Below are positions 12,085-61,847 of a stretch of DNA of 64,000 nt, piece after piece. How positions within the stretch are numbered: the stretch's first letter is position 1; every line of letters begins with the position of its first letter. The position numbers and the translations under genes were made by a program. The notes below the pieces were generated by a model. It was not told the origin of the DNA, ran no database searches, and saw nothing but the letters and a program-made list of their open reading frames with translations. The stretch spans positions 92,666 to 156,665 of the forward strand of contig CBDBPB010000002.1 of NCBI GenBank assembly GCA_965208615.1, read 5' to 3'. The DNA is from Spirochaetota bacterium. Its GTDB lineage: Bacteria; Spirochaetota; UBA6919; CBDBPB01.

Positions 12085-12897
12085 ATGATTAAAATTAATG
12101 AACAGTTTATAGAGTATAAAAGTGATATAAGCCTTTTTGACCTTAGGGATAAGTTTAAGCCAGAGGCTGATATTATGATATACAACGGATTCCCTATTAG
12201 TGAAGACAGGTTTTTGGCTGATGGTGATGAGGTTGTATTTATTAAGCGGGGTGAAGTGCCTTCTAAAGACGATCTTGAAGGTTTAATGCTATCCCGTCAT
12301 ACACCTGGTGTACATAAAAGGCTTAAGGCTAGTGTGGTTGGTGTCGCTGGCATAGGTGGATTAGGTTCATCTGTGGCTATTGCATTAGCGAGGATAGGCA
12401 TTGGGAAGCTTATATTAGCTGATTTTGATATAGTGGAGCCTAGTAATTTAAATAGGCAACAGTATTTTATTAATCAGATTGGTATGCCTAAGGTTCATGC
12501 TATGCGGGATAATTTAAGGCAGATTAATCCTTATGTTGAGGTTGATATATATCAGGTAATTCTTGATGAGGCTAATGTACCTGATATTTTTAGTGGGGTT
12601 AATGTATTGGTTGAGGCTTTTGATAGGCCTGATATGAAGTCTATGTTGATTAATTCTTTTTTGGATAGTTATCCAGAGGGATATGTAGTTAGTGCATCTG
12701 GCTTAGCTGGCTATGATAGTGCTAATTTAATTAAGACCCATTGTTTTGGTGATAGGCTATTTGTTGTGGGGGATAGGGTATCGGCTGCTATGCCTGGTAG
12801 GGGGCTTATGGCTCCTAGAGTTGGTGTTGCTGCACATCATCAGGCTAATAAGGTTTTAGAGATAATATTAGGAGATGGTTATGAACATAGTGGTTAA
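12085..12897 (+). CDS. thiF: Sulfur-carrier adenylyltransferase ThiF with N-terminal ThiS-like extension
   Basis: E1-like nucleotide-binding motif GVAGIGGLGSSVAIALARIG...ILADFDIVEPSNLNRQ. First ~60 aa resemble a ThiS/MoaD beta-grasp (INEQF...DGDEVVFI). Confidence 0.75.
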   Translation: MIKINEQFIEYKSDISLFDLRDKFKPEADIMIYNGFPISEDRFLADGDEVVFIKRGEVPSKDDLEGLMLSRHTPGVHKRLKASVVGVAGIGGLGSSVAIALARIGIGKLILADFDIVEPSNLNRQQYFINQIGMPKVHAMRDNLRQINPYVEVDIYQVILDEANVPDIFSGVNVLVEAFDRPDMKSMLINSFLDSYPEGYVVSASGLAGYDSANLIKTHCFGDRLFVVGDRVSAAMPGRGLMAPRVGVAAHHQANKVLEIILGDGYEHSG

Positions 12898-13078
12898 CGG
12901 AGAGGATAGATTGATTAAGGGTTTAACGGTTAATGATCTTTTGGATGAGCTATGTATTTCCAGGGTAAATATAGCTGTGGAGCTTAATAAGAGTATTGTT
13001 CCAAAGGGTCAGTTTGATAGTGTTAACTTGGCTGATGGGGATAAAATAGAGATTGTACAATTTGTTGGTGGTGGATAA
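12875..13078 (+). CDS. thiS: Sulfur carrier protein ThiS
   Basis: 67 aa, MVMNIVVNGE start and C-terminal GG; overlaps thiF stop. Confidence 0.8.
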   Translation: MVMNIVVNGEDRLIKGLTVNDLLDELCISRVNIAVELNKSIVPKGQFDSVNLADGDKIEIVQFVGGG

Positions 13079-14596: not shown

Positions 14597-15229
14597 TTAG
14601 AATTCTTTAAGAAGTGCCTTCCTAACCCTTATATCATTACGAAACTCTTTTTGAAAGTCCTTTTTTACCTTTTCAAAGTCATCAATAAGCGTAGTCTTGG
14701 TTATACTATAAAACTCATTATGGTCAAACTTAAGAGTACCTATATATACAGCTTTGTCATTAGGCTTAATCTTAACCATAGCCCTAATAGGAATTATAAG
14801 TTTGTTCGTATTTAAATTCCGAGTACCCTTATTAACATACTCACACTCCTGTAAGATAAACATCTCAAGTATATAAAAAGATTTTCTTTTAAACTTGATA
14901 TAAAAATCATTGTTAAGCCTAGCAATAATCCTATTAGTAAAATAGAATCCCATAGATGAATTATAAGTTTTTTCTGTAGGAGGATCTTGTATTTTTTCAT
15001 CAATCCAAATATGAATCTTATCTTTAAACTCGTAAGGAAAACAATTACGAGAGTCGCTAATATTATAAAAGCTATCCCCAAGAGGAGGGTCAAAAATAAT
15101 CTTTCCAATAACTAAAACTTCATTATCCTTTAAGTTGGAATCTTTCTCAAAATGTTCAACTTTATTAGGTAAGCTTGAACAACCCATAAATACTAATAAA
15201 ACTAAACATATAAACTTTATCTTATTCAT
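14597..15229 (-). CDS. Lipoprotein of unknown function
   Basis: Signal peptide with lipobox (VFMGC-SS). Confidence 0.45.
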   Translation of the reverse strand: MNKIKFICLVLLVFMGCSSLPNKVEHFEKDSNLKDNEVLVIGKIIFDPPLGDSFYNISDSRNCFPYEFKDKIHIWIDEKIQDPPTEKTYNSSMGFYFTNRIIARLNNDFYIKFKRKSFYILEMFILQECEYVNKGTRNLNTNKLIIPIRAMVKIKPNDKAVYIGTLKFDHNEFYSITKTTLIDDFEKVKKDFQKEFRNDIRVRKALLKEF

Positions 15230-15233
15230 AAAA

Positions 15234-15815
15234 CTAACCTTCAGTTTTTAAATTATCAGTAATCATTTTAATTTGTTTAGAATACTTATTCTTATCCATT
15301 TTTATAAACATAGTCCTTAACCTAATTAATAGATCCTTCTTTGATGGATTGGTAATAGTTATAAGGTCATAATCACTTCTTTTGTTTTTTAACATTACAT
15401 ATCTATATGAACCCATAAAATAAATACCAGGCTTTTTAACTCTTATAGCAGTTTTATTTTCACTAATAGAAAAATTATATACATAACTACCAAATTCCAA
15501 AGTCTCTTGAATAAAATCATAAGAGTAAAACTCCTCAATCTGATAAGGTCCAGGCTTAACTACAGAACTATACCAAAATAAATTACCTTTATCTATCTCA
15601 AAATCAAGATATATCTTTGGCTTAAAAGGATATCTACGAGCATGTATACCAGTTAGCTCTTTTCCAGGTGCATTTTTCATATCAATATAACCAAAAATAA
15701 GGGAACTCTTAAGAGAACTATTAGTATTATGAGATTCCTTTTTAGACACAGAATTACTGCAGTCAATAATAAAAAACGCCGCTATTAGTATTATAACTAT
15801 TAGTCTGAAATACAT
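15234..15815 (-). CDS. Putative exported protein or lipoprotein of unknown function
   Basis: Hydrophobic N-terminus with Cys shortly after (FFIIDCSN); same strand as and adjacent to the previous lipoprotein gene. Confidence 0.4.
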   Translation of the reverse strand: MYFRLIVIILIAAFFIIDCSNSVSKKESHNTNSSLKSSLIFGYIDMKNAPGKELTGIHARRYPFKPKIYLDFEIDKGNLFWYSSVVKPGPYQIEEFYSYDFIQETLEFGSYVYNFSISENKTAIRVKKPGIYFMGSYRYVMLKNKRSDYDLITITNPSKKDLLIRLRTMFIKMDKNKYSKQIKMITDNLKTEG

Positions 15816-16216
15816 TTTATCTCCAAAATAAGTAAAACTATACTTAATAGTTTATCTATTAGGATTCTCACATTTTTATAGCTAAAAACTTACTAAAAGC
15901 CAAGTAAATAGTTAATATTAGACATACTTTAAAAATATGCCTAAGCTTATATTTAATAGATAATAACTTAAGTATTCTAATATGTAAAACCTTGCCCTAC
16001 AGATAACGTCAATCTATAAAAGTTTAACAATTTAAACTAGTTCTCTTTTTCAAAGAGATGTAAAATACATTTATCTGAAGTTATATGTTTTATCATAAGA
16101 TATATACTTTTTAATCGACCTACTAAGAAATTAAAATAATATTTTTTTTATTATAAAAAAAGTGTTTACTATTGTTAACTCGATCTTAAAATAAGATTAA
16201 ATGAGGGTATAAAGTT

Positions 16217-20119: not shown

Positions 20120-21209
20120 ATGATCATAAGTAGCAAAGGGAATAGATTAAATATTAGAGCTTTGTTTTCTTTAAACAAGATTTTTATATTTGTCTTTATT
20201 TTTTTTATGTTTGTGTTAACCATGTTATTCTTCTCTAAGGAAGTTTTATCTCAGGATAGACACAGAATAGATTTTTTAAATAAAAATATAGTCAAAGGTA
20301 TTAATATAGGGGATAATTATTATAGTGAAGATAATGAGAATCTTTTGTATGCCTTAGCTCGTTTTGAGTTGAAGAACAAACAGTTTTTAATTGACGATAA
20401 TATTGTAGACTATAAAGGATATTTTAAACAGTTAAAGTTCCGGACTTATACAATTAAAAAGCGTGATACTCTTAGTAGTATTTCAAGGAAGTTTAATATA
20501 AATATTGCTACTTTAGTAAGTTTTAATAACATAGAGGTTGATAAGGCTTTAAGGATTAATAATCAGCTTTTTATTCCGAGTATGGATGGGATTTTATATT
20601 CTGTTAAAAAAGAGGATAGTTTAAGAGGTATTGTAAAGAAGTACTCAAAATATAATGTTAAGTTAGGCGACATAATTTATTTAAATAATATAGTAAATAA
20701 CAAGATAATAGAGAAAGAGCGTCTTTTTATTCCTGGAGCAAAAATAGCTAAGAATCTTCTTATTAAGAAGTTAGAGCATACTTTTGCAATACCGGCAAAA
20801 GGTAGGATAACATCATTAGTGGGGATGAGGCCTAGTATTTTTAAGGGTCCCCAAAAAGGGTTATGAATTTCATCCAGGGGTTGATATAAAGGCCTATTAT
20901 GGTTCACCTGTGAGGGCGGCCAAAAGTGGACGAATAAAGTTAGCAGGTAGAGTTAAGGGATATGGAAAAGTAATTTTCATTAACCATGGTAATGGTTTAC
21001 AGACTAGATATGGTCATTTATCCCGGATATTGGTAAAACGTGGAGAGAGGGTAAGGAAGAGGCAGGTAATTGGGAAGGTAGGCAGTACTGGCAATTCTAC
21101 AGGTCCACATCTTCATTTTGAAGTGAGAAAGTATGGTAAGGTAGTTAATCTTACTCGTAAGTTTAAGGGATTAAGGTTAAAGCGTGGCGGATACTGGAAG
21201 TGGAATTAA
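20120..21209 (+). CDS. LysM-domain M23 metallopeptidase, interrupted by a +1 shift near 20849-20860
   Basis: Two LysM-like segments in ORF 20120-20866. M23 signature continues in the next frame (EFHPGVDI...GSTGNSTGPHLHFEV) in ORF 20910-21209. Shift sits in a C4-A5-G3 run. Confidence 0.65.
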
Positions 21210-21240
21210 TTTTATAATTTGTAGACATATTATAGTTTTT

Positions 21241-21480
21241 ACTCATAGGGGATTAGGCATACTTTTTTTAGATTTACTGTGTGTTATCAAAGGTATTACT
21301 ATGCTATTGTAAAGAGGTTTTGCTAGTTTACTTTTTATAATTGTTGTTTATTTATAGGGGATTAGGCATACTTTTTTTAGATTTACTGTGTGTTATCAAA
21401 GGTATTACTATGCTATTGTAAAGAGGTTTTGCTAGTTTACTTTTTATAATTGTTGTTTACTCATAGGGGATTAGGTATAC
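21241..21480 (+). repeat. Tandem repeat, ~110 bp unit, about 2.2 copies
   Basis: Unit starting ...ataggggattaggcatactttttttagatttactgtg... recurs at 21241, 21351 and partially at 21459. Confidence 0.75.
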
Positions 21481-21859
21481 TTTTTTGAAGTTTTACACAT
21501 AACGTCAATATCTAATATTTAAATAATCCGCTCTACACCTTTATGGAACTGCAAATCCGTTAACACTTAATAAGGGTCTATAATCCTTAGTCTCAGTAAG
21601 GGATTCTTAATAGCTCCCGTAATGATGACTACTTGCATAAAAAGTGATATTTTGTGTTAATTACTAAGGCATTTAAACAGCACTTAAAGAGCATATAGGG
21701 ATAACCTGCTTGACACAGGAAAATAACTTTTCCATAAATATTTTAACTTTCCTGTTCCACAAAGAGATATAAAATACATCTGCCTTTACGTTATATGTCT
21801 TGCTTTTTACCTTGTAGACTTTGTCATAACTATGTCATAAAATGACAACTGAATTATTA
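21481..21859 (+). repeat. Conserved noncoding block, copy A (paired with 58116-58570)
   Basis: Near-identical long stretch in both loci (e.g. ...ccgctctacacctttatggaactgcaaatccgttaacactt...cttgacacaggaaaataacttttcc...); no ORF of 60 aa or more in any frame. Confidence 0.7.
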
Positions 21860-22712
21860 AATAATATCCCTTTAGCCTTAACAAAAAATAAATATACTTA
21901 CTCGTCTGACTTAAAGTCTAAGCGTACAAGTTTATATGCATGTCTATTTTCAACAACCTAAACTTGATGGAGTATCCGTTATACTAAACCATAAAAAAGA
22001 AAAACTATATTCCCTTTAACCTCAACAAAAAATAAATATACCTACCAGCCCTAACTCAAGGTCTGAGCGTACAAGTTTATATGCATGTCTATTGTCAACA
22101 ACCTAAACTTGATAGAGTGCCTGTTATACTAAACCATAAAAAAGAAAAACTATATTCCCCTTAGCCTCAACAAAAAATAAATATACTTACTCGCCTGACT
22201 TAAAGTCTAAGCGTACAAGTTTATATGCATGTCTATTGTCAACAACCTAAACTTGATGAAGTATCCGTTATACTAAACCATAAAAAAGAAAAACTATATT
22301 CCCCTTAGCCTCAACAAAAAATAAATATACTTACTCGCCTGACTTAAAGTCTAAGCGTACAAGTTTATATGCATGTCTATTGTCAACAACCTAAACTTGA
22401 TGAAGTATCCGTTATACTAAACCATAAAAAAGAAAAACTATATTCCCCTTAGCCTTAACAAAAAATAAATATACTTACCCGCCTGACTTAAAGTCTAAGC
22501 GTACAAGTTTATATGCATGTCTATTGCCAACAACCTAAACTTGATGGAGTGCCTGTTATACTAAACCATAAAAAAGAAAAGCTATATTCCCCTTAGCCTT
22601 AACAAAAAATAAATATACTTACTCGCCTGACTCAAGGTCTGAGCGTACAAGTTTATATGCATGTCTATTGTCAACAACCTAAACTTGATGAAGTATCCGT
22701 TATACTAAATTA
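21860..22712 (+). repeat. Tandem array, 144-145 bp unit, about 6 copies
   Basis: Landmark acaaaaaata recurs at 21881, 22025, 22170, 22314, 22458, 22602. Unit contains ...gtctaagcgtacaagtttatatgcatgtctattgtcaacaacctaaacttgatg.... Confidence 0.85.
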
Positions 22713-23070
22713 TCACATATTATGTATAGGTATGGCAATTGGGAATATTAAAACCTCTTATTAAAATATAGCTATCCCCTTTGAAATAGGTTTAAGTACT
22801 TTTTCAGGATGCGGAGAGGATGATATATCCTGTGAGGCTCTGGGTGATTGTGATAAAAATGTTGAAAGTCAGCTAGAGAAAGCAAAAGATGAGGTTACAG
22901 CTGCAAATAAAGAGGTTAACGATGCAAAGAAAGAGGTTAAAAAGGATAAAAAATTAACGCCTGAAGAATTAGAAGAAGCAAGAAAAAAATTAGAAGAAGC
23001 AAGAAAAAAATTAGAAGAAGCAGAAAAAAGATTAAAAGAAGCAAAAAAGATATTAGAAAAGCTAGAAGAT

Positions 23071-25524
23071 ATGTTCCTTAAGGTTTGCAAGGTAACAAGA
23101 ACTACGGATGCTTATATTAACGCTGTTACTTGTAATAAGACTCTCGAGGATAAGTGTAATGGTGAGTGGGATTCACAAGACTGTATAGCGTCTCTTGGTA
23201 CGGCAATTGGGGTATGTAGAGTAGAAAAAGATACAACTACTCGTACTGACGTTGTTACTTGTAATACGATGGTTCAAAGTGAGTGTGATGACAAACTAGG
23301 TGAGTGGGGCTTGCAAAGCTGTACTACAAATCCTGGTACTAAAAGGCTAAAAGCAGTGCCAGAAGCAATATGCAAGGTAATTAGAGATACAGCTTCTCAT
23401 GCTAATGTAGTTACTTGTAATACAATGGTTCAAAGTGAGTGTAGTAAAAGTAAAAGAAAAGGTAATTGGAATCCACAAATCTGTAATCCAGATATTGGTA
23501 CGCCAATAAGTAAAACCTGTAAGATAATAAAAGATTCGGATACTCATACTGATGTTGTTACTTGTCAGACTACTACTAAGGCTGATTGTCCAAGTCCAAG
23601 TGTGTGGGATCCAAAAACCTGTATTCCGTCTATTGGTAATACATGTAAGATAACAGAAAATACGGATAGTCATACCGGCGTTGTTACTTGTAAAAAAACT
23701 ACTAAGGATGATTGTCAAGGTGAGGGGCGTGCGTGGGGTCTACTAGCCTGTACTGAGTCTATTGGTACTCCAATAACTAAGACATGCAAAGTGGAAAAAG
23801 ATACGGATAGTCATACCGGCGTTGTTACTTGTGATAAAACTACTAAAACTCAGTGTGATACTGATAAGGGTACCTGGGACCCACCAAGCTGTGAGCCGTC
23901 TGATGGTACAAAAAGGCAAACACCAGTGGAAGAAAAGGTTTGTAAGATAACAAAAGATACGGATACTCATACAGGCGTTGTTACTTGCGATAAGAATATT
24001 AAGACTGAGTGTGATACTAAACAAGGTGAGTGGGATCCACAAACCTGTACTCCGTTTACTGGTCAGCCCAAGACTAAGATTTGTAAGATAACAACAGAGA
24101 CGTATACTCATACAGGCGTTGTTACTTGTGATACAACTACTAAGGCTCAGTGTGATACTGATAATGGTGATTGGGACTCACAAAGCTGTACTACAAATCC
24201 TGGTACGCCTAAGACTAAGGTTTGCAAGATAACAGAAAATACGCCTACTCGTAGAGGTGTTGTTACTTGTGATACAGCTACTAAAACTCAGTGTGATACT
24301 GATAAGGGTGAGTGGGGCTTAAAAAGTTGTACTCCATCTAAGGGTAAGGCAATTAAGGTTTGTAAGATAACAACAGAGACGCCTAGTCATACAGGCGTTG
24401 TTACTTGTGAGAAAACTACTAAAACTAAGTGTGATACTAAACATGGTGAGTGGGACTCAACAAACTGTACTCCGTCTGCTGGTACGCCCATACCAAATGG
24501 TACGCCCATACCACCTGGGGTTGTTTTTGTAAAAGCTGGAACTCGTACTACTAAAAATGGGAAATCCTGGAATACTGCTTATAGTGATCTTCAAAAAGGT
24601 ATTGAGGAAGCCTCAGAAAAGTTTAAGTCTACTAAAAAACCTGTTAAGGTATATGTAGCCCAAGGGACTTATAAGCCTCAGAGTAGGCCAAATGGTGGTA
24701 CTAGTGATCGTCATAACCATTTTTCATTAAGGAATGGTGTAGAGGTTATTGGGGGTTTTCCTGGTCTAATTACTGGTGAGTCTAATAATCCTAACTACTA
24801 TAAGACTGTCCTAAGCGGTGATATCAGAAGAGTGGGCGATGATAGTGATAACGCCTATCATGTTTTTTATCATCCAGCTACTGCAAAGCTAGATAACACT
24901 GCAAAGTTAGTAGGGGTTATAATTACCAAAGGCAATACTAATACTAGTAGTAATTCCCATAGTTCTGGAGGAGGCATGTTTAATTATGAGAGCTCTCCAA
25001 CGTTAACAAATGTGGAGTTTAATAGTAATACGGCATCATACGGAGGGGGCATGGATAATACTAGTAGTAGCTCTCCAACGTTAACAAATGTGGAGTTTAA
25101 TAGTAATACGGCATCATACGGAGGGGGCATGTTTAATTTTAATAATAGCTCTCCAACGTTAAAAGATGTGACTTTTACTAGTAATACGGCTACTTATAGA
25201 GGAGGGGGCATGTATAATTATAATGAGAGCTCTCCCACTTTAACAAATGTGACTTTTACTAGTAATACGGCTAATAGGTACGGAGGGGGCATGGTTAATT
25301 GGGGTAATAGCAAGCCCACTTTAGATAATACGGTGATTTTTAATAAAAACATTGCTGGTAGTGTTGCTAATAGCCAAATAGGCAAAGGCGGGGCTATTTA
25401 TAATTATTCCTCAAGCATAACAGGCACACCAACCTATGGAACGGGTACTAATGAAAATAAAAAGGTTGTCAAAAATAATAATGGCACATATAAACTTATA
25501 AAGTCAAACCTTGACTCAGACTAA
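23071..25524 (+). CDS. Pmp-like repeat surface protein, paralog 1; lacks signal peptide
   Basis: About ten Cys-rich ~47-51 aa modules (CKITKDTDTHTGVVTCDKTTKTxCDTDKGxWDPxSC), then a choice-of-anchor / beta-helix-like region and five or more GGGM-Y/F-N...VTFTSN units. The frame is open upstream to 22765 but has no ATG/GTG/TTG before 23071. Confidence 0.6.
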   Translation: MFLKVCKVTRTTDAYINAVTCNKTLEDKCNGEWDSQDCIASLGTAIGVCRVEKDTTTRTDVVTCNTMVQSECDDKLGEWGLQSCTTNPGTKRLKAVPEAICKVIRDTASHANVVTCNTMVQSECSKSKRKGNWNPQICNPDIGTPISKTCKIIKDSDTHTDVVTCQTTTKADCPSPSVWDPKTCIPSIGNTCKITENTDSHTGVVTCKKTTKDDCQGEGRAWGLLACTESIGTPITKTCKVEKDTDSHTGVVTCDKTTKTQCDTDKGTWDPPSCEPSDGTKRQTPVEEKVCKITKDTDTHTGVVTCDKNIKTECDTKQGEWDPQTCTPFTGQPKTKICKITTETYTHTGVVTCDTTTKAQCDTDNGDWDSQSCTTNPGTPKTKVCKITENTPTRRGVVTCDTATKTQCDTDKGEWGLKSCTPSKGKAIKVCKITTETPSHTGVVTCEKTTKTKCDTKHGEWDSTNCTPSAGTPIPNGTPIPPGVVFVKAGTRTTKNGKSWNTAYSDLQKGIEEASEKFKSTKKPVKVYVAQGTYKPQSRPNGGTSDRHNHFSLRNGVEVIGGFPGLITGESNNPNYYKTVLSGDIRRVGDDSDNAYHVFYHPATAKLDNTAKLVGVIITKGNTNTSSNSHSSGGGMFNYESSPTLTNVEFNSNTASYGGGMDNTSSSSPTLTNVEFNSNTASYGGGMFNFNNSSPTLKDVTFTSNTATYRGGGMYNYNESSPTLTNVTFTSNTANRYGGGMVNWGNSKPTLDNTVIFNKNIAGSVANSQIGKGGAIYNYSSSITGTPTYGTGTNENKKVVKNNNGTYKLIKSNLDSD

Positions 25525-25554
25525 TAAGTATATTTATTTAGTCCGTTAAAATTA

Positions 25555-25580
25555 AGGGGAGTATAGCTCCTCTTTTTTTT
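25555..25580 (+). terminator. Rho-independent terminator shared by the paralog family
   Basis: aaggggagtatagctcctc followed by T8; same element after all three paralogs. Confidence 0.7.
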
Positions 25581-25762
25581 ATGGTTTTTATAACAAAGTA
25601 GCATAAATAGCAGTTATAGCATAGATAGACTTGACTTATCCTTCTATAAATATTATCCTATGTGATAGAACAAGTTAATTTACTTTTAATTCTATAGTTT
25701 TTAATAAAAAGTTGTTTTTTGTTTAGTTTGAGTTATCTTATAAAAAAACAAGGAATTAAGTT

Positions 25763-27136
25763 ATGACAAAAAAGAATTATTTAAACATTTTAATAATACT
25801 ATTAATTAGTATTTCGTTAGTTAGGGGCAAGTGCGATTCCGATAAGGTAATAAGTCCTCCTTCTGATGGTACAGAAAGGCCAGAACCAGTGGAAGAAAAG
25901 GTTTGTAAGATAACAACAGATACGGATACTCGTAGAGGTGTTGTTACTTGTGAAAAGAATACTACTAATTGTCAAGGTGAGTGGGTCGTAGGATGTCGTC
26001 CATCTAACGGTATACTTATTCCAAAAGCTCAAAAAGATCAAATTTTTGTAAAAGCTTTAAACCAAGATGAAAGGCGCTCTAATGAAGATGGAAAGTCCTG
26101 GACAACTGCCTTTAGTGATCTTCAAAAAGGTATTAAGTATGCTTTTGAGAATAATAAAAAGATGGTATATGTAGCCCAAGGGACTTATAAGCCTACTAGT
26201 TATCCAAATGGTGGTAGTGGTGATGATCGTTATAAGCATTTTTCATTAAGGAATGGTATAGAGGTTATTGGAGGCTTTCCCGGTGAAAAGCTTGATGAGC
26301 CTAATAATCCTGAGCAATATGAGACTATTCTAAGCGGTGATATTGGAACTAAAGATGATAGAGATAACGTCTATCATGTTTTTTATCATCCTGATGGTAC
26401 AAACCTAAATAACTCAGCAAAGCTAGCTGGGGTTACAATTACCCAAGGCTATGCTTATTTTGCGTCTCCTGATGTTAATGAGCCTCGTAAGTTAGGAGGG
26501 GGCATGTATAATTTTAAGAGCTCTCCAACGTTAACAACTGTGACTTTTCGTAATAATACGGCTAGAGATGGAGGGGGCATGTATAATTTTAAGAGCTCTC
26601 CAACGTTAACAGGTGTGGCTTTTACTGAAAATACGGCTATTACCGGAGGGGGCATGCGTAATTATAAGGATAGCTCCCCAACGTTAAAAGATGTGACTTT
26701 TACTAAAAATGAGGCTACTGTTAACGGAGGGGGCATGCATAATTGGGATAATAGCTCTCCAAAGTTAACAGATGTGACTTTTACTAAGAATAAGGCTACT
26801 ATTAACGGAGGGGGCGGCATGTATAATTATTATTATAGCTCCCCAAAGTTAACAGGTGTGACTTTTAATAGTAATACGGCTAGTAGGTACGGAGGGGGCA
26901 TGTTTAATTTTGTTGGTTGCTCTCCAGAGTTCATAAGTAATGTGGTTTTTAATAAAAACATTGTTGGTAGTGTTGGTAGTGACCTAATAAGCTACGGCGG
27001 GGCTATTTATAATAGTAAGACTTCAGCCATAACAGGCACTCCAACCTATGGAACGGGTGATGATGAAAATAAAAAGGTTGTCAAAAATACAGATGGCACA
27101 TATAGTTTTGTAAAGTCAAACAGTTGGCCATGGTAA
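25763..27136 (+). CDS. Pmp-like repeat surface protein, paralog 2 (short form)
   Basis: Own N-terminal hydrophobic leader; one Cys module, then the same beta-helix-like region and about seven GGGM units; same C-terminal segment (ITGTPTYGTG.DENKKVVKN) and 3' flank as paralog 1. Confidence 0.7.
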   Translation: MTKKNYLNILIILLISISLVRGKCDSDKVISPPSDGTERPEPVEEKVCKITTDTDTRRGVVTCEKNTTNCQGEWVVGCRPSNGILIPKAQKDQIFVKALNQDERRSNEDGKSWTTAFSDLQKGIKYAFENNKKMVYVAQGTYKPTSYPNGGSGDDRYKHFSLRNGIEVIGGFPGEKLDEPNNPEQYETILSGDIGTKDDRDNVYHVFYHPDGTNLNNSAKLAGVTITQGYAYFASPDVNEPRKLGGGMYNFKSSPTLTTVTFRNNTARDGGGMYNFKSSPTLTGVAFTENTAITGGGMRNYKDSSPTLKDVTFTKNEATVNGGGMHNWDNSSPKLTDVTFTKNKATINGGGGMYNYYYSSPKLTGVTFNSNTASRYGGGMFNFVGCSPEFISNVVFNKNIVGSVGSDLISYGGAIYNSKTSAITGTPTYGTGDDENKKVVKNTDGTYSFVKSNSWPW

Positions 27137-27165
27137 TAAGTATATTTATTTAGTCCGTTAAAATT

Positions 27166-27192
27166 AAGGGGAGCATAGCTCCTCTTTTTTTT
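27166..27192 (+). terminator. Rho-independent terminator (family 3' flank)
   Basis: ggggagcatagctcctc hairpin followed by T-run. Confidence 0.7.
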
Positions 27193-27293
27193 ATGGTTTT
27201 TATAACAAAGTAGCATAAATAGCAGTTATAGCATAGATAGACTTGACTATATATTTAATTTTGATATATATTTTTATAGTGCATAGAAGACTA

Positions 27294-27752: not shown

Positions 27753-28110
27753 ATGAGAGAAGAATTTATACCTATTGTTATATATACGGCTTTAGTTGTT
27801 GGTTTAGGTCTTTTATTTTTACTTATGTCGAGGTATATTGGGCCAATAAAAAAGTCTAAGCAGAAGTATGATCCTTATGAGTGTGGAGTAGAGCCAATAG
27901 ATTCTTTAAGAAAGAGGTTTCATATAAGGTTTTTACTTAATAGCTGCGTTATTTATTTTGTTTGACATTGAAACTGTATTTTTATTGCCATGGGCGGTAA
28001 CTTTTGCTGATATGACTATATTAGCTATAGTTGAGGTTGTTGTATTCATAGGTATTTTGGCTATTGGACTATTATATATTATTAAAAAGAAGGTATTTCA
28101 ATGGGATTAG
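27753..28110 (+). CDS. nuoA: NADH-quinone oxidoreductase subunit A, with apparent +1 shift in a T5 run at 27930-27934
   Basis: N-terminal part ...YECGVEPIDS...RFHIRF in one frame; conserved continuation YLIAALFILFDIETVFLLPWAV... in the next frame, ending at 28110. Confidence 0.75.
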
Positions 28111-32136: not shown

Positions 32137-33625
32137 ATGCCAGAGGTAAATAAGTTATTAAGTGTTACAATTGACGGTCAGAAGTATGAGGTTAAGGAAG
32201 GTTTAACTGTACTACAGGCATGTTTAGATTTTGGTATTGATGTGCCTTATTTTTGTTATCATCCTTGTTTATCTACTGCTGGTAATTGTAGGATGTGTTT
32301 AGTTAAAATAGATAAAATACCTAAGCTTGCTATATCATGTGCTACTATGGTTGCTGAGGGGATGAACATATACACTAAAGACCCAGAGGTAATTAAGGCT
32401 CGTAATGCTATTATGGAGTTTTTATTAATAAATCATCCACTTGACTGTCCTGTATGTGATCAGGCTGGTGAATGTACTTTACAGGACTACTCATACCGAC
32501 ATGGGAGAGATTCGGGCAGGTTTACCGAAGAGCGTAATGTTAGGCACAAAAAAGACTTTGGGCCAAATGTCAAATATTGGGGTAGTCGGTGTATTATGTG
32601 TACAAGGTGTATACGTTTTTGTCAGGAGGTTAGTGGTACTGACGAGTTATACGCTTTTAACAGAGGGGATCGTTCTGTAATTGATATATTCCCTGGCATA
32701 GAGCTTAATAATCCATTATCTATGAATGTGGTTGATATTTGTCCTGTTGGAGCTTTAGTTAGTTCTCATTTTTTATATCAGGCACGGGTATGGAATATGG
32801 AGCAAAGGCATAGCCTATGTATAGAGTGTTCTACTGGATGTCATAACTAGGGTTGATTCTTTAGGCAATAGGATTAAGCGTATAGTACCTAGTTCAAATG
32901 ATCGATTTATGTGTGATCATGGTAGGCTAAGTTATGGATATATGTATTCTGAGGATAGGCTTCGTTATCCTTTGGTTAATGGGGATAAGTTAGCTTCGTG
33001 GTCAAAGGTAATGTCCGTATTTAGGGATAAGATAAGACGGTATGCTAGTAAGTCTAGTAGGTTAGCTTTTTTGATTTCTGCATGGAATACTAATGAGGCT
33101 ATGTTTATGGTTAACAGGCTTAAGGATAGTTGCTTAGACAAGAGTGACGTCTATTTGTATTATAAGCCTGATGAAGAGGATAAGGTTTTTCCTAAGTTTA
33201 GGATTAGTGGTGATCGTAATCCTAATATAAATGGTTTTAAGGCGGTTTTTAAAACGGGTGACATTAAAAAGCACTCAGTTAATTTATTAGTAGATAGGGT
33301 TAAGGCTAAAGAGGTTGATGTAGTTATAATAATAGGGGGTATATCCAGTGGATATATGCCTGAGAGTATTACTAATGTTTTATCTGATCTTAAAGATGTT
33401 ATTGTAATAGATTATATTAGTTCATCTTTTAGTAAGGCTGCGAGTTTGGTTTTACCTTCACTTAGTTATGCTGAGAAGGCTGGTAGTTATGTTAATGATC
33501 AGCTTAAGGTTAAAGCTGTTAAGCCTGTTATCAATCCTTTTACCCCTGGTAAGTCAGAAGATGTTATTTTACAAGAGCTTATCATTGCCCTATCAGAAAA
33601 AGGTGAGGTTTTTATCTACTGCTGA
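32137..33625 (+). CDS. nuoG: NADH-quinone oxidoreductase subunit G (short form), with apparent +1 shift near 32845-32852
   Basis: N-terminal 2Fe-2S / 4Fe-4S cysteine clusters in ORF 32137-32850. Continuation ...RVDSLGNRIKRIVPSSNDRFMCDHGR... in the next frame (ORF 32909-33625). Confidence 0.75.
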
Positions 33626-33735
33626 TATATTTGATGAGATGAATAGACAAGGAGTTTTTGATAGTTTAGTTAGTGAAGTAGGAGTAAAGAGCTAGCATTA
33701 AGTATTTAATTTTTGTTATATAGGGGTTTAGTAAC

Positions 33736-35359
33736 TTGGGACAACAGTTAAACTTGTTAGATATTGATAATGATAATAATTATATAACTATTAGTGAGGC
33801 ATCTAAGTGGGCAAGTGAATACTTGAACAGAAGTGTGACTAAGTCTCAAATATCATATTTAATAAATTATGCTAGGGTAGGGTCAATTAAGATTGATAGA
33901 AAAAATCATATAAACCTTAATGAGCTAAAAAATTATTATGACAATAGAAGTGAGAATGAAAAAAATAAGATTCTTAATGGGTTAAGTAAAGACGTTAACC
34001 TGTCCCTTTCATTTTCTGAATATAATGAATATGAGAGGACAAAGCATGTTCATAGGTTGCATCCATATAAAGGCAAATTTATTACTCAGCTGGTGGAGTA
34101 TTTTTTAAGTAATCATACTGACGGCTTTAAAAAAGAGGTTTTCTTTAAACAGGGAGATATTGTATTAGATCCTTTTGCAGGCTCTGGAACTACTTTAGTT
34201 CAAGCTAATGAGTTAGGAATACATTCTATTGGTATTGAGCTTTCTAGTTATAATGCTATTATTTCTAGAGTAAAGACTGAAAGCTATGAAATGGACAAAA
34301 TGAGACAAGAAGGTGATAGAATTATAGAGCTATTATATCACCTTAAAAAAGAGACTACTGCTTATTATGATGAGTTAGATAAGCTTATTAGGTTATATAA
34401 TGAAAAGTACTTCCCATCTCCTAAATATCGAAAGGCTATACATGCTAAAGAGATTAATGAAAAGAGCTATGGGAAAGAAGTATTAGGTAAATTTAACTTT
34501 GATTATGAAAAAGCTATTAAAAAAGTTTAATAAAATACACCCAGATAAATTATTTGAGAATAAAAGTCATCATAGTTTTTTAGAGTATTGGCTTACAGAG
34601 GATATCCAAAAAGAGATTAAAGTTATAAAAGAGATAATTGAGCTTATCAAAGATGAGAAGTTAAAATATCTTTTTATGGTTATATTGGGCAGGGCTGTTA
34701 GATCGTGTAGAGCAACAAAACATATAGATTTAGCAACTTTAACAAAGCCTCAATTTGCTCCTTATTATTGTGAGAGAAAGCATTTTAAATTGTGTAGACC
34801 AGTAAATAGTTTATTAAGTCATTTTAAGAAATATTATTTGGATTCGATTAGAAGGATTAAAAGTTTTAGTATGCTTAAAACTAACGCTTTAAATCTTGTT
34901 TTAGAAGGTGACTCATATAGTATTGAGCTTGATAAGGTGTTGGAGGTTAAGTCTTTTTTTAATAAAGCAGGTAAATATAAAATTGATGGGATATTCACAT
35001 CACCTCCTTATGTTGGTCAAATTGATTATCATGAGCAACATCTATATGCTTATGAGATTTTTAATTTGCCTATGAAAAAGGATAGAGAAATAGGGATATT
35101 AGGTCTTGGTAAAAGTAAAAAGGCAAGGGATCAATATTCTAAGGGTATTACAAAAGTATTTAGAAATTTGAAATCTTATTTAAAACCTTATGCTAACTGC
35201 TTTATAGTTGCTAATGATCGGTTGCAATTGTATCCAGATATAATAAATAAGTCAGGATATGAGCTTGTAAATGAGTTTAAGAGACCTGTACTAAATAGAG
35301 TTGAGAAAGATAGACGAGTATATGAAGAAAGTATTTTTCATATAAGGCCTAAAAGTTAA
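33736..35359 (+). CDS. DNA amino-methyltransferase (N6-A or N4-C), read as one gene with +1 shift in an A6 run near 34523-34528
   Basis: First ORF carries HRLHPYKGKF and SAM motif VLDPFAGSGTT; second ORF carries catalytic motif TSPPY. The second frame is open from 34487, so one extra A joins them. Confidence 0.65.
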
Positions 35360-35361
35360 AT

Positions 35362-35844
35362 ATGTCATTATCAGGTGAAACACATTATCAGATTGCTGGG
35401 CTACTTAAAAAGGCAGTTATAAAAAAGTTAGATAGTTATGCGATGTATTCATTTATTCACTCGATGAACACAACCCTTGGAATGTCAATATGGGAGCAGA
35501 TAGCTAAAATATTAGCTAAAGGTGCTGGAATGGAAGTTAAACGACAATATAAACTATTAGGTGAAATAGATAAACCTACTGAAGCTTTAATTGATGACAA
35601 TGCACAAGTTGAAACGAATTTAGCTATTCCCTATAATCCTTATCATCCTAAACCTTATGAAAGGTGGACTCTTGTTGGCCTTTTTGATTTAGACAGGGAA
35701 CTGTACGCAGGAGAAGATTTCTGGAACTTTGTAGCTAATGATGACATTTATAATGAATTATTAAATGTTTTTGAAGAAGTTGGTAATGAGTTAAGGCCTA
35801 AAATTGATAATAGATTTGCCCAATTTAGAGTCAATTACAATTAA
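35362..35844 (+). CDS. Hypothetical protein (160 aa) immediately downstream of the methyltransferase
   Basis: ORF only; no nuclease motif recognised by eye. Confidence 0.4.
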   Translation: MSLSGETHYQIAGLLKKAVIKKLDSYAMYSFIHSMNTTLGMSIWEQIAKILAKGAGMEVKRQYKLLGEIDKPTEALIDDNAQVETNLAIPYNPYHPKPYERWTLVGLFDLDRELYAGEDFWNFVANDDIYNELLNVFEEVGNELRPKIDNRFAQFRVNYN

Positions 35845-35868
35845 GTTTTGGGGATAAAGTGAGGGATA

Positions 35869-57392: not shown

Positions 57393-58111
57393 CAGGGGTT
57401 AGTAAAAAGGTTATATCTTTGCATTGTATGTTATATATATATAGATATCGCATGGGTTCAATTATCTTTGATGTTGGAGCAGGATGTATTAAGAGATATT
57501 TTAAAGATAGTCAAGCGTTTTAAGGAGTTAGTTAGTTATCATTTTAGGGTTAGACAGTCTTGGGATGACAGGGGTTAGTAAAAAGGTTATATCTTTGCAT
57601 TGTATGTTATATATATATAGGTATTGCATGGGTTCAATTATCTTTGATGTTGGAGCAGGATGTATTAAGAGATATTTTAAAGATAGTCAAGCGTTTTAAG
57701 GAGTTAGTTAGTTATCATTTTAGGGTTAGACAGTCTTGGATGACAGGGGTTAGTAAAAAGGTTATATCTTTGCATTGTATGTTATATATATATAGGTATC
57801 GCATGGGTTCAATTATCTTTGATGTTGGAGCAGGATGTATTAAGAGATATTTTAAAGATAGTCAAGCGTTTTAAGGAGTTAGTTAGTTATCATTTTAGGT
57901 TAGACAGTCTTGGGATGACAGGGGTTAGTAAAAAGGTTATATCTTTGCATTGTATGTTATATATATATAGGTATCGCATGGGTTCAATTATCTTTGATGT
58001 TGGAGCAGGATGTATTAAGAGATATTTTAAAGATAGTCAAGCGTTTTAAGGAGTTAGTTAGTTATCATTTTAGGGTTAGACAGTCTTGGATGACAGGGGT
58101 TAGTAAAAAGG
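57299..58111 (+). repeat. Tandem array, ~175 bp unit, about 4.6 copies, reiterating the 3' end of the DUF294 gene
   Basis: Landmark tggagcaggatgtattaaga recurs at 57301, 57475, 57651, 57826, 58001. Copies differ mainly in G-run length. Confidence 0.85.
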
Positions 58112-58115
58112 TTCT

Positions 58116-58570
58116 ATCAGTCATTTTATTAGTGAAGATTTCAGTAGTTTACTTTTTATAGTTGTTATTTATCATAGAGGATTAGGCATACTTTTTTGAA
58201 GTTTTACACATAACGTCAACATGTAATATTTAAATAATCCGCTCTACGCCTTTATGGGACTGCAAATCCGTTAACACTTAATAAAGGTCTATAATTCTTA
58301 GTTCCAGTAAGGGATTCTTAATAGCTCCCGTAATGATGACTACTTGCATAAAAAGTGATATTTTGTGTTAATTACTAAGGCATTTAAACAGCACTTAAAG
58401 AGCATATAGGGGTAACCTGCTTGACACAGGAAAATAACTTTTCCATGAATATCTTAACTTTCCTGTTCCACAAAGAGATATAAAATACATCTGCCTTTAC
58501 GTTATATGTCTTCATTTTGCCTTGTATCCCTCGTCATTACTACGTCATAAAATGATAACTAAATTATCAT
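58116..58570 (+). repeat. Conserved noncoding block, copy B (paired with 21440-21859)
   Basis: Near-identical to copy A over its length, with scattered substitutions. Confidence 0.7.
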
Positions 58571-58860
58571 AAAAAAGAAGAGCCGTCCTCCCCTTAATTT
58601 TAACAAAAAAATAAACTATACTTACTAACTTTACTCAAAGTCTAAGCGTACAAGTTTATATGCATGTCTATTTTCAACAACCTAAACTTGATGGAGTGCC
58701 TGTTATACTAAACCATAAAAAAGAAAAGCTATATTCCCCTTAGCCTTAACAAAAAATAAATATACCTACCAGCCCTAACTCAAGGTCTGAGCGTACAAGT
58801 TTATATGCATGTCTATTGTCAACAACCTAAACTTGATGAAGTATCCGTTATACTAAATTA
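58571..58860 (+). repeat. Tandem array, 144-146 bp unit, about 2 copies
   Basis: Same unit family as 21860-22712. Confidence 0.75.
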
Positions 58861-59076
58861 TTACATATTATGTATAGGTATGCCAATTGGGAATATTAAA
58901 ACCTCTTATTAAAATATAGCTATCCCCTTTGAAATAGGTTTAAGTACTTTTTTTAGTTGTATTTTTCTTTGAGATTGATTACCTTATAGTAGATTTATTT
59001 TTAAATGATATAGCTTTATATGCGTTGGCCTATTAGAGCTTAACGTTTTAAGCTAAAAAAAACAATAGGGGGAATC

Positions 59077-61743
59077 ATGAAGAAAGTATTCTTTATTTTA
59101 CTAACTTTAGCTTTATTAACAGGATGCGGAGAGGATGATATATCCTGTGAGGCTCTGGGTGATTGTGATAAAAATGTTGAAAGTCAGCTAGACAAAGCAG
59201 ATAAAGATGTTGCAGCTGCAGAGGAAGAGCTAAATAAATTAGAAGTAGATGGGATAAATGATGGAAATAAAGAAGAGGTAGTAGGAAAAGTAGAAGATAT
59301 AGCAACAGGAGTACAGAAAGCAGTAGATAGCTTAAAAGATGTAGTCGAAGAAGAAAAACTAAAAAATATAAAAAATAAACTTATAACAATATTAAATAGT
59401 TTAACAGACGCAGACACAAAAAAAGTAAGAGAAATAGTAAATGTGCTAAAAACAGCAGTAAAAGGCCTAAAAACAGCAGTAGAAGCTTTAAAAGGCTTAG
59501 TAGACGAGGGAAAAGGAAAAAAGACCTGTAAGGTAACAAGTAATACGGATACTCATAGAGGCGTTGTTACTTGTGATAAAACTACTAAAACTAAGTGTGA
59601 TACTGATAAGGGTACCTGGGACCCACCAAGCTGTGAGCCGTCTGCTGGTACAGAAAGGCAAACACCAGTGGAAGAAAAGGTTTGTAAGGTAACAAAAGAT
59701 ACGGATACTCATACAGGCGTTGTTACTTGTGATAAAACTACTAAAACTAAGTGTGATACTGATAAGGGTACCTGGGACCCACCAAGCTGTGAGCCGTCTG
59801 CTGGTAAGGCAATTAAGGTTTGTAAGGTAACAAAAGATACGGATACTCATGCTAACGTTATTACTTGTGATACAATGGTTCAAAGTGAGTGTAGTAAAAG
59901 AGATGGTGAGTGGGGAGTGCAATGTACTAAATCTAATGGTATGCCTAAGATTAGGCTTTGTAAGGTAAAAAAAGATACGGATGATTATATCGGCGTTATT
60001 ACTTGTGATACAACTACTAAGGCTAATTGTCAAGGTGAGTGGGATTCACAAGACTGTAGGCCATCTGATGGTACTCCAATTAAGATATGTAAAGTAAAAA
60101 AAGATACGACTACTCATATCGGCATTGTTACTTGTAAGAAGACTACTAAAACTAAGTGTAATACTGATAAGGGTACCTGGGGGTCCACCAAGCTGTAATC
60201 AAAATCCTGGAGCTCTCATACCAGCTGGGGTTGTTTTTGTAAAAGCTGGAACTCGTACTACTAAAAACGGTAAAACCTGGAAAAACTGCTTATAGTGACC
60301 TACAAAAGGCTATTGATGAAGCTAAGAAAGCTAATAAACCTAAGGTATATGTAGCCCAAGGGACTTACAAGCCTACTGGTCATCCAAATGGTGGTAATGG
60401 TGGACGTGAAAAGCATTTTTCATTAAGGAATGGTGTAGAGGTTATTGGTGGTTATAAAGGTGAAAAGGTTGATGAGTCTAATAATCCTAACTACTATAAG
60501 ACTATCCTAAGCGGTGATAATAACGCCTATCATGTTTTTTATCATCCCGCTATTGCAAACTTAGATAAAACAGCAAAGTTAGTGGAGGTTACTATTACCA
60601 AAGGCAATGCTAATGGTAGTGATCCTCATGAATACGGAGGGGGCATGTATAATTATAATAGCCATCCCACTTTAACAACTGTGATTTTTGAGAGTAATAA
60701 GGCCGGATGGGGAGGGGGCATGTATAATGAGTATAGCTCTCCAGAGTTAAGAAATGTGACTTTTGAGAGTAATAAGGCCGGATGGGGAGGGGGCATGTAT
60801 AATAAGGATAATAGCAAGCCAAAGTTAACAAATGTGACTTTTACTTAGTAATGAGGCCTCATACGGAGGGGGCATGTTTAATATTAATAGTTCTCCAGAG
60901 TTAAAAGATGTGACTTTTGATAGCAATGAGGCTAAGCAATACGGAGGGGGCATGTATAATAAGGATAATAGCAAGCCAAAGTTAACAAATGTGACTTTTA
61001 CTAGTAATGAGGCCTCATACGGAGGGGGCATGTTTAATATTAATAGTTCTCCAGAGTTAAAAGATGTGACTTTTGATAGCAATGAGGCTAAGCAATACGG
61101 AGGGGGCATGGGTAATGAGAAGAGCTCTCCCACTTTAAAAGATGTGGAGTTTACTAGTAATACGGCCGACTTAGGAGGGGGCATGTATAATAATAATAGC
61201 TCTCCCAAGTTAACAAATGTGACTTTTACTAGTAATACGGCTAATAGGTACGGAGGGGGCATGTTTAATAGTGATAGCTATCCAACGTTAAGAAATGTGA
61301 CTTTTACTAGTAATGAGGCCTCATACGGAGGGGGCATGACTAATTATAAAACCTTTCCCACTTTAAAAGATGTGACTTTTACTAGTAATACGGCTACTAA
61401 AGGAGGGGGCATGTATAATTATAAAACCTTTCCCACTTTAAAAGATGTGACTTTTAATAGCAATGAGGCTAAGCAATACGGAGGGGGCATGTATAATAGT
61501 GATAATAGCAAGCCCACTTTAGATAATACGGTGATTTTTAATAAAAACATTGCTGGTAGCATTGAAGATAAAAAAGAAGGAAAAGGCGGGGCTATTTATA
61601 ATGTTGTTGGTAAAGATAATATTCCTGACTCAAGCATAACAGGCACACCAACCTATGGAACGGGTACTAATGAAAATAAAAAGGTTGTCAAAGTGGGTAA
61701 TACATATAAACTTGTACAGTCAAACCTTGAGTCAGGCCAGTAA
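59077..61743 (+). CDS. Pmp-like repeat surface lipoprotein, paralog 3, interrupted by three +1 shifts (about 60183, 60275, 60848)
   Basis: RBS plus lipoprotein signal peptide MKKVFFILLTLALLTGC. Six Cys modules, then the beta-helix-like region and about twelve GGGM units across three consecutive frames (ORFs 59077-60198, 60582-60848, 60874-61743). Confidence 0.65.
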
Positions 61744-61771
61744 GTATATTTATTTAGTCCGTTAAAATTAA

Positions 61772-61797
61772 GGGGAGCATAGCTCCTCTTTTTTTTA
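61772..61797 (+). terminator. Rho-independent terminator (family 3' flank)
   Basis: ggggagcatagctcctc followed by T8. Confidence 0.7.
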
Positions 61798-61847
61798 TTG
61801 GTTTTAATAACATTGAAATATTTATAGATGTAGGTTATATTTACTTA

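Follow-up and report, generated by a model that had tools for sequence, protein, structure and literature searches.

One gene copy in the 64-kb window (the whole stretch of 64,000 nucleotides that was analysed), here called locus 1, most probably represents an ordinary copy of a gene that was disabled recently, and not a proven antigenic-variation "archive". Specifically, we assign a probability of roughly 55% to the reading that locus 1 is a lineage-specific surface-lipoprotein paralog that was recently disabled by one non-homologous deletion of 167 bp and is now a young, functionally silent pseudogene; a role as a donor of sequence is possible. The choice between donor and pseudogene was judged from one genome. 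The lesion and the two loci that define it are as follows.

22804..22805, plus strand: deletion junction at locus 1, ACTTTTT joined to CAGGATGC, blunt, with 0 microhomology.
22805..25524, plus strand: coding body of locus 1, homologous to the family, beginning at the second base of codon Thr-15, followed by the lipobox G-C.
58953..59119, plus strand: segment found at locus 3 alone; leader of 124 nt, Shine-Dalgarno (SD) site AGGGGGA, ATG 59077, signal-peptide codons 1-14 plus 1 nt.
59077..61743, plus strand: locus 3 gene; signal MKKVFFILLTLALLTGC, five 4-Cys repeats, beta-helix, three +1 frameshifts.

The alignment of 22400-22900 with 58540-59220, with exact extension from both sides, leaves 167 bp of locus 3 (58953-59119) without a counterpart at locus 1. 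This comparison extends the narrower one (22700-22830 against 58850-59130) proposed in an earlier note on this DNA, and the deletion is seen in it. The note had described a precise loss of some 170 bp carrying the ribosome-binding site (RBS), ATG and lipoprotein signal from between flanks of the same sequence, and in these respects it was right. The absent segment encodes M1-L14 and the first base of T15 of the locus 3 signal, with AGGGGGA placed 5 nt before ATG 59077; the rest of this Thr codon and the lipobox G-C are retained at locus 1, so that the right breakpoint falls 5 nt before the codon for the lipidated cysteine. Around the junction, locus 1 is perfectly identical to locus 3 over 142 bp (22736-22877): the first mismatch on the right is at 22878, and the left side carries 3 mismatches in 179 bp (22626-22804 versus 58774-58952). 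Since 22804 is followed directly by 22805, with no ambiguous base, microhomology is zero. The 167-bp segment occurs once in the window, at locus 3, and by inspection has neither inverted nor direct terminal repeats; with no microhomology, no inverted-repeat ends and no second copy in the window, the segment is neither mobile nor invertible, and a (promoter) cassette of that kind was rejected. The 124-nt leader at locus 3 contains a hairpin, AGCTTAA-CGTT-TTAAGCT; a structured RNA in the leader is unsupported, as the leader has no Rfam match and the predicted CCCCU-SD pairing is marginal (z = -1.96).

The absence at locus 1 is supported as a derived deletion because P0010, a fourth member of the family at another place in this genome, shares both the signal peptide and the N-terminal box; it carries MKKIFFILLTLLLLIGCGEDDISCEALGNCDKNVES and the lipoprotein signal MKKIFFILLTLLLLIGC. 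The 142 bp of perfect identity, set against a dS of 0.07-0.31 in the gene body, suggests that the event was recent, although this identity may itself come from gene conversion.

The reading frame of locus 1 is open from 22765 to 25524 (919 codons), after a TAA at 22762-22764. A frame scan bears out the claim that it contains no ATG, GTG or TTG before 23071. The frame encodes first the GCGEDDISCEALGDCDKNVES box and a coiled-coil stalk, then ten 4-Cys repeats at 23086-24510, and last a beta-helix of PMP-like type. Signal peptides were judged by reading the sequence against an n-region/h-region/lipobox [LVI][ASTVI][GAS]C pattern. Locus 3 conforms to it, with MKK-VFFILLTLALL-TG-C and the lipobox L-T-G-C behind AGGGGGA-N5-ATG; at locus 1 the start codon, n-region and h-region are gone and only (T)GC is left. 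The evidence supports the view that neither translation of locus 1 from the ancestral start nor its export as a lipoprotein is possible. The features that bear on residual expression are listed here.

23071..23073, plus strand: first in-frame ATG, at which the database annotation begins protein P0001 (817 aa).
22739..22767, plus strand: sigma-70-like TTGGGA-N17-TAAAAT, a candidate promoter, kept at locus 1.
58887..58915, plus strand: locus 3 counterpart of this sigma-70-like site, 5' of the 167 bp missing from locus 1.
Within the coiled-coil region of locus 1: EKAKDEVTAANKEVNDAKKEV.

The further claim that the promoter went with the start codon is not supported: both loci retain the sigma-70-like site, which is located upstream of the deleted stretch, and no site of equal quality was found inside the deleted 167 bp. 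In scans that perform at chance level, it is the sole sigma-70-like match near the gene on the plus strand. With a candidate promoter and a long open frame in place, locus 1 might still be expressed, from ATG 23071, from ATA 22825 (a non-canonical start preceded by an SD-like GGAGAGG) or by read-through from a 35-codon open reading frame (ORF) at 22657-22764, which lies upstream in the same frame and is separated by the TAA alone. We regard this as very improbable. No SD site precedes ATG 23071, which is an internal residue of the family (LEDMFLKVCK, versus LEDKFLKVCK in P0010); initiation at ATA and read-through of TAA are rare; locus 3 carries the same small ORF 165 nt upstream of its real start; and none of these starts would provide a signal peptide, yet the protein has more than 40 cysteines in repeats of extracytoplasmic type.

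Accordingly worded, the young-pseudogene reading runs as follows. A single deletion took away the 5' leader and the RBS together with the start codon and the signal peptide's hydrophobic stretch, leaving intact the 2.7-kb body and, upstream, some 1.4 kb of DNA in which the promoter may lie. Locus 1 may still be transcribed, with no usable in-frame start on the transcript, and a product begun at the internal ATG 23071 would be without an export signal despite its cysteine-rich domain. Lacking both a usable start and an export signal, locus 1 would be functionally silent, and its intact frame would be owed to its youth and not to selection. Of this account, the deletion and what it took away, the missing start, the ancestral form and the past recombination within the family are demonstrated here, whereas the recent date, the silence of the locus and the lack of selection on it are inferred.

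The openness of that frame counts against a pseudogene, as it is complete over 919 codons despite about one frameshift per 6-7 kb elsewhere in the assembly. The window contains at least eight frameshifts, all of them +1 and including nuoA and nuoG, plus two further candidates; besides these two genes and locus 3, +1 sites fall in thiF, an nlpD-like gene, an MTase gene and an isochorismatase-like gene. At locus 3, which has a start and a signal, the three +1 frameshifts lie inside motifs starting at 60176 (G5), 60276 (A5) and 60840 (ACTTAG), and taking out three bases gives an 887-aa ORF. Given the number of +1 frameshifts in the window and the fact that essential genes are hit too, those of locus 3 are probably consensus errors of the assembly and carry little weight in either direction. 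Locus 3 is therefore no longer regarded as a proven pseudogene; its standing as "the expressed locus" is uncertain.

So error-prone an assembly, in a repetitive region of 144-bp arrays and paralogs, raises the question of whether the deletion itself is fixed: it could be a minority or heterogeneous allele caught in the consensus, or an artefact arising where the two loci share 1.4 kb of DNA that is 91-98% identical. This is improbable in our judgement. The errors seen are all single-base insertions, with no long deletions among them; repeat collapse cannot yield a blunt junction with zero shared bases, which must therefore be in the reads; and both versions sit in distinct, unique assembled contexts.

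The family to which locus 1 belongs is built of a lipoprotein signal, a GCGEDDISCEALGDC box, a coiled coil, 4-Cys repeats and a PMP-like beta-helix, the N-terminal box following the pattern GCGEDDISCEALG(D/N)C. Besides loci 1 and 3 the window holds one short member, and a tblastn search with all family proteins found no other family fragments in it.

25763..27136, plus strand: locus 2, an intact short paralog of 457 aa, in which an unrelated signal peptide is joined inside a Cys repeat.

Membership in the Chlam_PMP/right-handed beta-helix class comes through locus 2, which matches Beta_helix (PF13229) at 35.9 bits (gathering cut-off 25.9) and Chlam_PMP (PF02415) at 27.4 bits (cut-off 20.6). 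Locus 1 gave no Pfam match at E<=0.001; its C-terminal third has 71-79% DNA identity to locus 2 and 35-41% identity to beta-helix proteins of other phyla. Locus 2 shows 5' truncation and remodelling to be a recurrent accident in the family.

By all searches made, the family appears confined to this genome. A HMMER search against 1.84 billion representative proteins matched this genome's own proteins only; a scan of GTDB species representatives returned just the 35-41% beta-helix relatives from other phyla; and a degenerate N-terminal-box pattern had no match in JGI metagenomes. In other phyla, distant homologs stand in tandem arrays of paralogs (L002, L003), and the stalk of coiled coil and 4-Cys repeats has no homolog outside this genome. 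The closest relatives (NuoD 73-77% identical) have no family gene upstream of nuoA; the named NuoD matches, about 60% identical, are from Leptospirales, Fibrobacterota and Planctomycetota MAGs. With no homologous family in the databases or in the nuo flanks of relatives, nothing indicates a conserved system. Two observations concern the stalk: its K/E-rich coiled coil swamped a word-indexed protein search, and AlphaFold gave a two-repeat unit of the 4-Cys repeat a pLDDT of 34.

Loci 1 and 3 are chromosomal; 36 kb separates them, and the nuo operon lies in this interval. Their surroundings contain the following shared elements.

21433..21760, plus strand: upstream block of locus 1 common to locus 3 (58145-58471), with 96% identity over 300 bp.
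21761..22769, plus strand: seven tandem units of 144 bp 5' of locus 1; every unit is an inverted, degenerate copy of the family's 3' coding end plus terminator.
58485..58917, plus strand: three 144-bp units upstream of locus 3.
25525..25636, plus strand: conserved 3' flank with the terminator hairpin GGGGAGTATAGCTCCTC-T8, 99% identical to 27137-27248 and 96% to 61741-61812.

The inverted 3'-end units are unexplained, and no role has been demonstrated for them. Near the junction the 5' flanks are 98-100% identical, and the 3' flanks 96-99% over 72-112 bp, whereas the interior is 65-80% identical; interior dN/dS ranges from 0.7 to 2.3: for the N-terminal portion of the beta-helix it is 0.7-1.1, and the C-terminal tail exceeds 2. 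The Cys repeats form a non-colinear mosaic with one clear inter-locus patch: repeat 6 of locus 1 is 91% identical to repeats 1 and 2 of locus 3 and at most 76% to its own neighbours. Homogenised flanks go with a fast-evolving interior, and one patch has passed between the loci.

These features also suit the possibility, raised in the earlier note, that locus 1 is a maintained silent donor whose body is copied, in whole or in part, into locus 3 by non-reciprocal gene conversion, varying a surface antigen. The 5' block of homology would comprise the upstream DNA and the first 25 mature codons, the 3' block the last 40 or so codons and the terminator, while leader, start codon and lipoprotein signal would come from locus 3. 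The entire mature coding region is kept and open; the breakpoint so close to the Cys codon spares the whole mature protein, as in silent cassettes; the flanks (96-100%) are far more conserved than the synonymous sites of the body; the dN/dS values are as for diversifying surface proteins; and the gene encodes a surface-type lipoprotein with PMP-like repeats. An open frame, a neat breakpoint, conserved flanks and the repeat-6 patch would indeed be expected of a maintained donor. Even so, we consider such a donor unlikely. The window offers one start-less copy where known systems have many, and hence no repertoire of several to many silent donors as in systems of the pilE/pilS, vlsE/vls, Vmp or tprK type; the complete upstream region kept at locus 1 is the signature of a deletion allele, not of a cassette; and relaxed constraint also fits the high dN/dS. 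No recombinase was found adjoining locus 1 or locus 3, and no dedicated recombination-initiating element (G4, vls 17-bp repeats, DHS inverted repeat) came to light: neither strand of the window carries a G4 motif, and on inspection the segment ends are not repeats. The genome is, moreover, a singleton in every collection searched. Still more doubtful is a minimal two-locus cassette for an orphan family of stalked surface lipoproteins in a deep-branching uncultured lineage, in which locus 3 would give leader, start and signal, the start-less copy would give the body by gene conversion through homogenised blocks, and the upstream inverted 3'-end arrays would serve as recombination substrates.

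Conserved flanks, a fast interior and one exchanged patch fit a cassette system and ordinary concerted evolution alike, and the evidence for conversion is historical only. Under the young-pseudogene reading, the family evolves by birth and death with frequent recombination, as seen in homogenised ends, divergent interiors, shuffled repeats and remodelled N-termini. As a member of a recombining family, locus 1 can exchange sequence with its paralogs; such exchange would be incidental, and nothing shows that the locus is maintained for that purpose.

On present evidence, locus 1 exemplifies how paralogous surface-protein genes are silenced through small 5' deletions; if it were a maintained donor, it would reveal a system of surface variation by recombination, in a lineage and a protein family without described relatives. 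Two cautions concern annotation: database protein P0001 begins at an internal Met, and +1 insertion errors in the assembly break up nuoA, nuoG and other genes, so that "pseudogene" calls in this genome require read-level confirmation.

Among known systems, the silent pilS copies of Neisseria have no promoter, RBS or N-terminal leader-coding part and keep the variable body, conserved blocks permitting non-reciprocal transfer into the expressed pilE; they are numerous and clustered, lack the pilE upstream region, and switching needs a G4-forming element beside pilE. Locus 1 is likewise without RBS and leader-coding part and keeps its body; in contrast, it is one copy with full upstream homology, in a window free of G4 motifs.

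In Chlamydia-type Pmp proteins, the likeness lies in the Chlam_PMP/Beta_helix matches of locus 2 and in the GGGM(Y/F)N...TF..N repeats of 75-81 bp; the family differs in having no Pfam autotransporter-domain match, and its anchoring is by a predicted N-terminal lipid and a stalk of coiled coil and 4-Cys repeats.

The Vmp system of Borrelia hermsii combines an expression site with about 60 silent vmp genes and has UHS/DHS homology blocks; the silent genes lack a promoter and keep the UHS, which takes in the RBS and start codon and extends over the first 26 bp of coding sequence (PMC6011951). Shared with our case are variable surface lipoproteins, a conserved 5' block straddling the gene start together with a 3' block, and a complete silent mature part. 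At locus 1, however, the arrangement is reversed, the candidate-promoter DNA being kept and the RBS, start and signal peptide gone, and instead of dozens of copies on linear plasmids there are two on the chromosome.

The closest parallel is an ordinary 5'-deleted pseudogene, in which a single lesion takes the translation start and export signal and the rest is intact as the event is recent. We see no essential difference from it; what is unusual is the position of the right breakpoint and the very high flank identity to locus 3. The setting resembles a birth-and-death paralog family, whose sister copies are remodelled in other ways, as with the replaced N-terminus of locus 2.

Locus 1 stands out as the start-less paralog in a family of variable surface lipoproteins.

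Members and repeat of the surface-lipoprotein family in the window
22805-25524, + strand: locus 1, with GCGEDDISCEALGDCDKNVES box, K/E-rich coiled coil, ten ~47-aa 4-Cys repeats, and GGGM(Y/F)N repeats in its C-terminal domain
25763-27136, + strand: locus 2, intact, 457 aa; Pfam Beta_helix and Chlam_PMP above threshold
59077-61743, + strand: locus 3, with lipoprotein signal, box of the locus 1 type, different stalk, five Cys repeats and beta-helix
23086-24510, 59527-60198 and 25904-26020: 10, 5 and 1 copies of the 4-Cys repeat (~47 aa), CK[IV]T.DTD.HTGVVTC....K..C.....G.W....C

Alignment of locus 1 with locus 3, together with exact-match extension from each side, confirms the earlier note in that a 5' segment is missing from locus 1 between matching flanks, and sets its size at 167 bp: 58953-59119 of locus 3 has no counterpart, and 22804 abuts 22805. 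The left flank shows 3 mismatches in 179 bp, mismatches on the right begin at 22878, and identity around the junction is perfect over 142 bp (22736-22877). Lost with the segment are a 124-nt leader, a Shine-Dalgarno-like AGGGGGA with 5 nt between it and the ATG (59077), and the first 14 codons and one further base of MKKVFFILLTLALLTGC, a sequence whose n-region, h-region and L-T-G-C lipobox are canonical. Of the lipobox, locus 1 still has G-C and the final two nucleotides of the Thr codon. A frame scan bears out that the locus 1 frame, open over 22765-25524 (919 codons), contains no ATG, GTG or TTG before 23071. The junction is blunt, with zero microhomology and each base assignable to one side; no inverted or direct repeats were seen by inspection at the segment ends, and no further copy of the segment occurs in the window. 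Since a blunt junction without shared bases cannot come from repeat collapse, we regard the deletion as real and unlike the single-base shifts in kind; that it reflects heterogeneity or an artefact is improbable. A recent loss-of-function deletion would have made locus 1 a young pseudogene, its frame still being open by virtue of its youth, and this reading is the most economical one (probability roughly 0.55).

The direction of the change can be judged from P0010, the fourth family member, encoded elsewhere in the genome on a 605 kb contig from the same source, which consists of MKKIFFILLTLLLLIGCGEDDISCEALGNCDKNVES, a coiled coil, one Cys repeat and a metalloprotease-like domain with metzincin-like HEIGHLLGLRH. 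Over its residues 16-145 it aligns, at 61% identity, with the part of the locus 1 frame that begins at GCGEDD, and an internal Lys stands where 23071 encodes Met. Signal peptide and box are therefore the ancestral state, and it is locus 1 that lost them. P0010 also shares the GCGEDDISCEALGNC box and the lipoprotein signal, there fused to a different C-terminal domain, and because the same module is thus joined to another domain, the N-terminal module is probably a shared surface-anchoring stalk. Locus 2 is a 5'-truncated member with a newly acquired start and export signal: its beginning (25763-25903) is an unrelated signal peptide, MTKKNYLNILIILLISISLVRG, joined in mid-Cys repeat (KCDSDKVISPPSDGTERPEPVEEKVCK). 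The database protein P0001 (817 aa, from 23071) is an annotation artefact; the ATG at 23071 has no Shine-Dalgarno site upstream, and the predicted product lacks an export signal, yet carries a domain with >40 cysteines. The Cys repeat found no match in Pfam, and AlphaFold gave no usable model of a two-repeat unit (pLDDT 34).

Locus 3 as assembled contains three +1 frameshifts, in motifs starting at 60176 (G5), 60276 (A5) and 60840 (ACTTAG instead of ACTAG); removal of the three bases yields a clean, stop-free frame of 887 aa. An initial suggestion that this "expressed" copy is a dead pseudogene was dropped in view of similar shifts across the window.

Genes and regions affected by single-base shifts
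nlpD-like LysM+M23 gene: split, +1 shift
nuoA and nuoG: split, +1 shifts (tblastn with proteins of L005, a relative)
alpha-class DNA methyltransferase: split, +1 shift (motif I and motif IV in different frames)
isochorismatase-like gene: split, +1 shift
thiF and a minus-strand gene: two further candidate shifts
Regions with split genes or sites: 20120-21209; 27753-28107; 32137-33625; 33736-35359; 61848-62394; 60176/60276/60840
Candidate split regions: 12085-13075; 14600-15851 (- strand)

The frameshifts total at least 8 in the window. Because every confirmed one (8/8) is a +1 shift that adds a single base, usually within a short homopolymer, and essential complex I subunits are among the genes affected, they look like insertion-type consensus errors of long-read assembly, not biological pseudogenes. 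Hence, locus 3 cannot be called a pseudogene, although it carries an excess of shifts (three in 2.7 kb). The methyltransferase, an N6/N4 enzyme, lies with a 160-aa ORF in a ~2.2 kb insert (33625-35869) between nuoG and nuoH, which adjoin in L005.

The further claim that the promoter was lost is unsupported. A consensus scan found one sigma-70-like + strand site near each gene, TTGGGA-N17-TAAAAT (58887-58915 at locus 3, 22739-22767 at locus 1), situated 5' of the deletion and still present at locus 1, and no comparable site inside the 167 bp; as such sites occur at chance level, it is a candidate only. Locus 1 may well be transcribed; residual expression from another start is very unlikely. Folding prediction for the locus 3 leader (58920-59100; z = -1.96 only), which has no match in Rfam, pairs AUCCCCU with the AGGGGGA Shine-Dalgarno site, the two being separated by a 7-bp hairpin, AGCUUAA/UUAAGCU; AUCCCCU itself precedes the deletion and survives at locus 1.

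The unit as a whole is segmentally duplicated. Upstream of locus 1, the block at 21433-21760 matches 58145-58471 of locus 3 at 96% over 300 bp, the tandem arrays of 144-bp units match at 88-93%, the leader matches too, and all three loci share a 3' flank, terminator hairpin included, at 96-99% identity, whereas the interior shows only 65-80% identity between paralogs and the locus 1 stalk cannot be aligned with that of locus 3. In the alignable parts (24500-25524, 26020-27136, 60215-61743) dS is 0.07-0.31, and dN/dS, on small counts, ranges over 0.7-1.1 for the N-terminal section of the beta-helix and ~2.0-2.3 for the C-terminal tail, values that speak for either diversifying selection or relaxed constraint. 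The Cys repeats of loci 1 and 3 are not colinear: locus 1 repeat 6 is the best partner of locus 3 repeats 1, 2 and 5 (91, 91 and 85%), with <=76% identity to the other locus 1 repeats, a pattern characteristic of patch exchange between the two loci.

Homogenised flanks, a divergent interior and an exchanged patch are in keeping with a surface-protein family that evolves fast and recombines; on their basis, a dedicated cassette mechanism and ordinary concerted evolution cannot be told apart. Of the two fates proposed in the earlier note, silent donor or decaying pseudogene, recent loss of function is the favoured one, and a maintained silent donor, its main rival, is a distinctly less probable alternative. 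Points that would suit a donor are a mature coding region left intact, a breakpoint that stops 5 nt short of the Cys codon, flanks that have been homogenised and the patch exchange between loci; but locus 1 is a single copy in the window, its full upstream region is that of a deletion allele and not of a cassette, and no initiating element or recombinase was found nearby. It is improbable that this orphan family operates a minimal cassette system of two loci.

The 144-bp units (21761-22769, 58485-58917) repeat, in inverted and degenerate form (77-83% identity), the 3' end of the family's genes from the last ~28 codons through the stop to the terminator hairpin, so that loci 1 and 3 are each flanked by inverted 3'-end homology. 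A second array derived from a gene 3' end, at 57299-58118 (175-bp unit x4.7, 98% identity), repeats the last ~30 codons of a DUF294/CBS/cNMP nucleotidyltransferase gene (55548-57392) plus downstream DNA, and a 109-bp unit (21238-21486, x2.3, 96% identity) directly follows an M23 peptidase fragment and precedes the block that locus 1 has in common with locus 3.

In each of the collections searched, the genome is a singleton, and a HMMER search of 1.84 billion representative proteins found the N-terminal and Cys-repeat module in this genome only. The nearest NuoD relatives (MAGs and contigs, 73-77% identity) have no family gene upstream of nuoA; named relatives (Leptospirales, Fibrobacterota, Planctomycetota) show ~60% identity. 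The window also encodes the C-terminal part of the arsenite oxidase large subunit (5-1432; AioA, TIGR02693, E 3e-201) and genes for cobalamin (CbiD, tetrapyrrole methylase) and thiamine (ThiS-ThiF, ThiG) synthesis, a content consistent with a metabolically versatile organism.

Among known systems, pilS copies are many and lack RBS, start, leader and upstream homology. Locus 1 resembles them in lacking RBS, start and leader, but differs in being single and in having a full upstream region. In the silent vmp genes of Borrelia hermsii, the UHS holds the RBS, the start and the first 26 coding bp while the promoter is absent, an arrangement opposite to that of locus 1 (PMC6011951).
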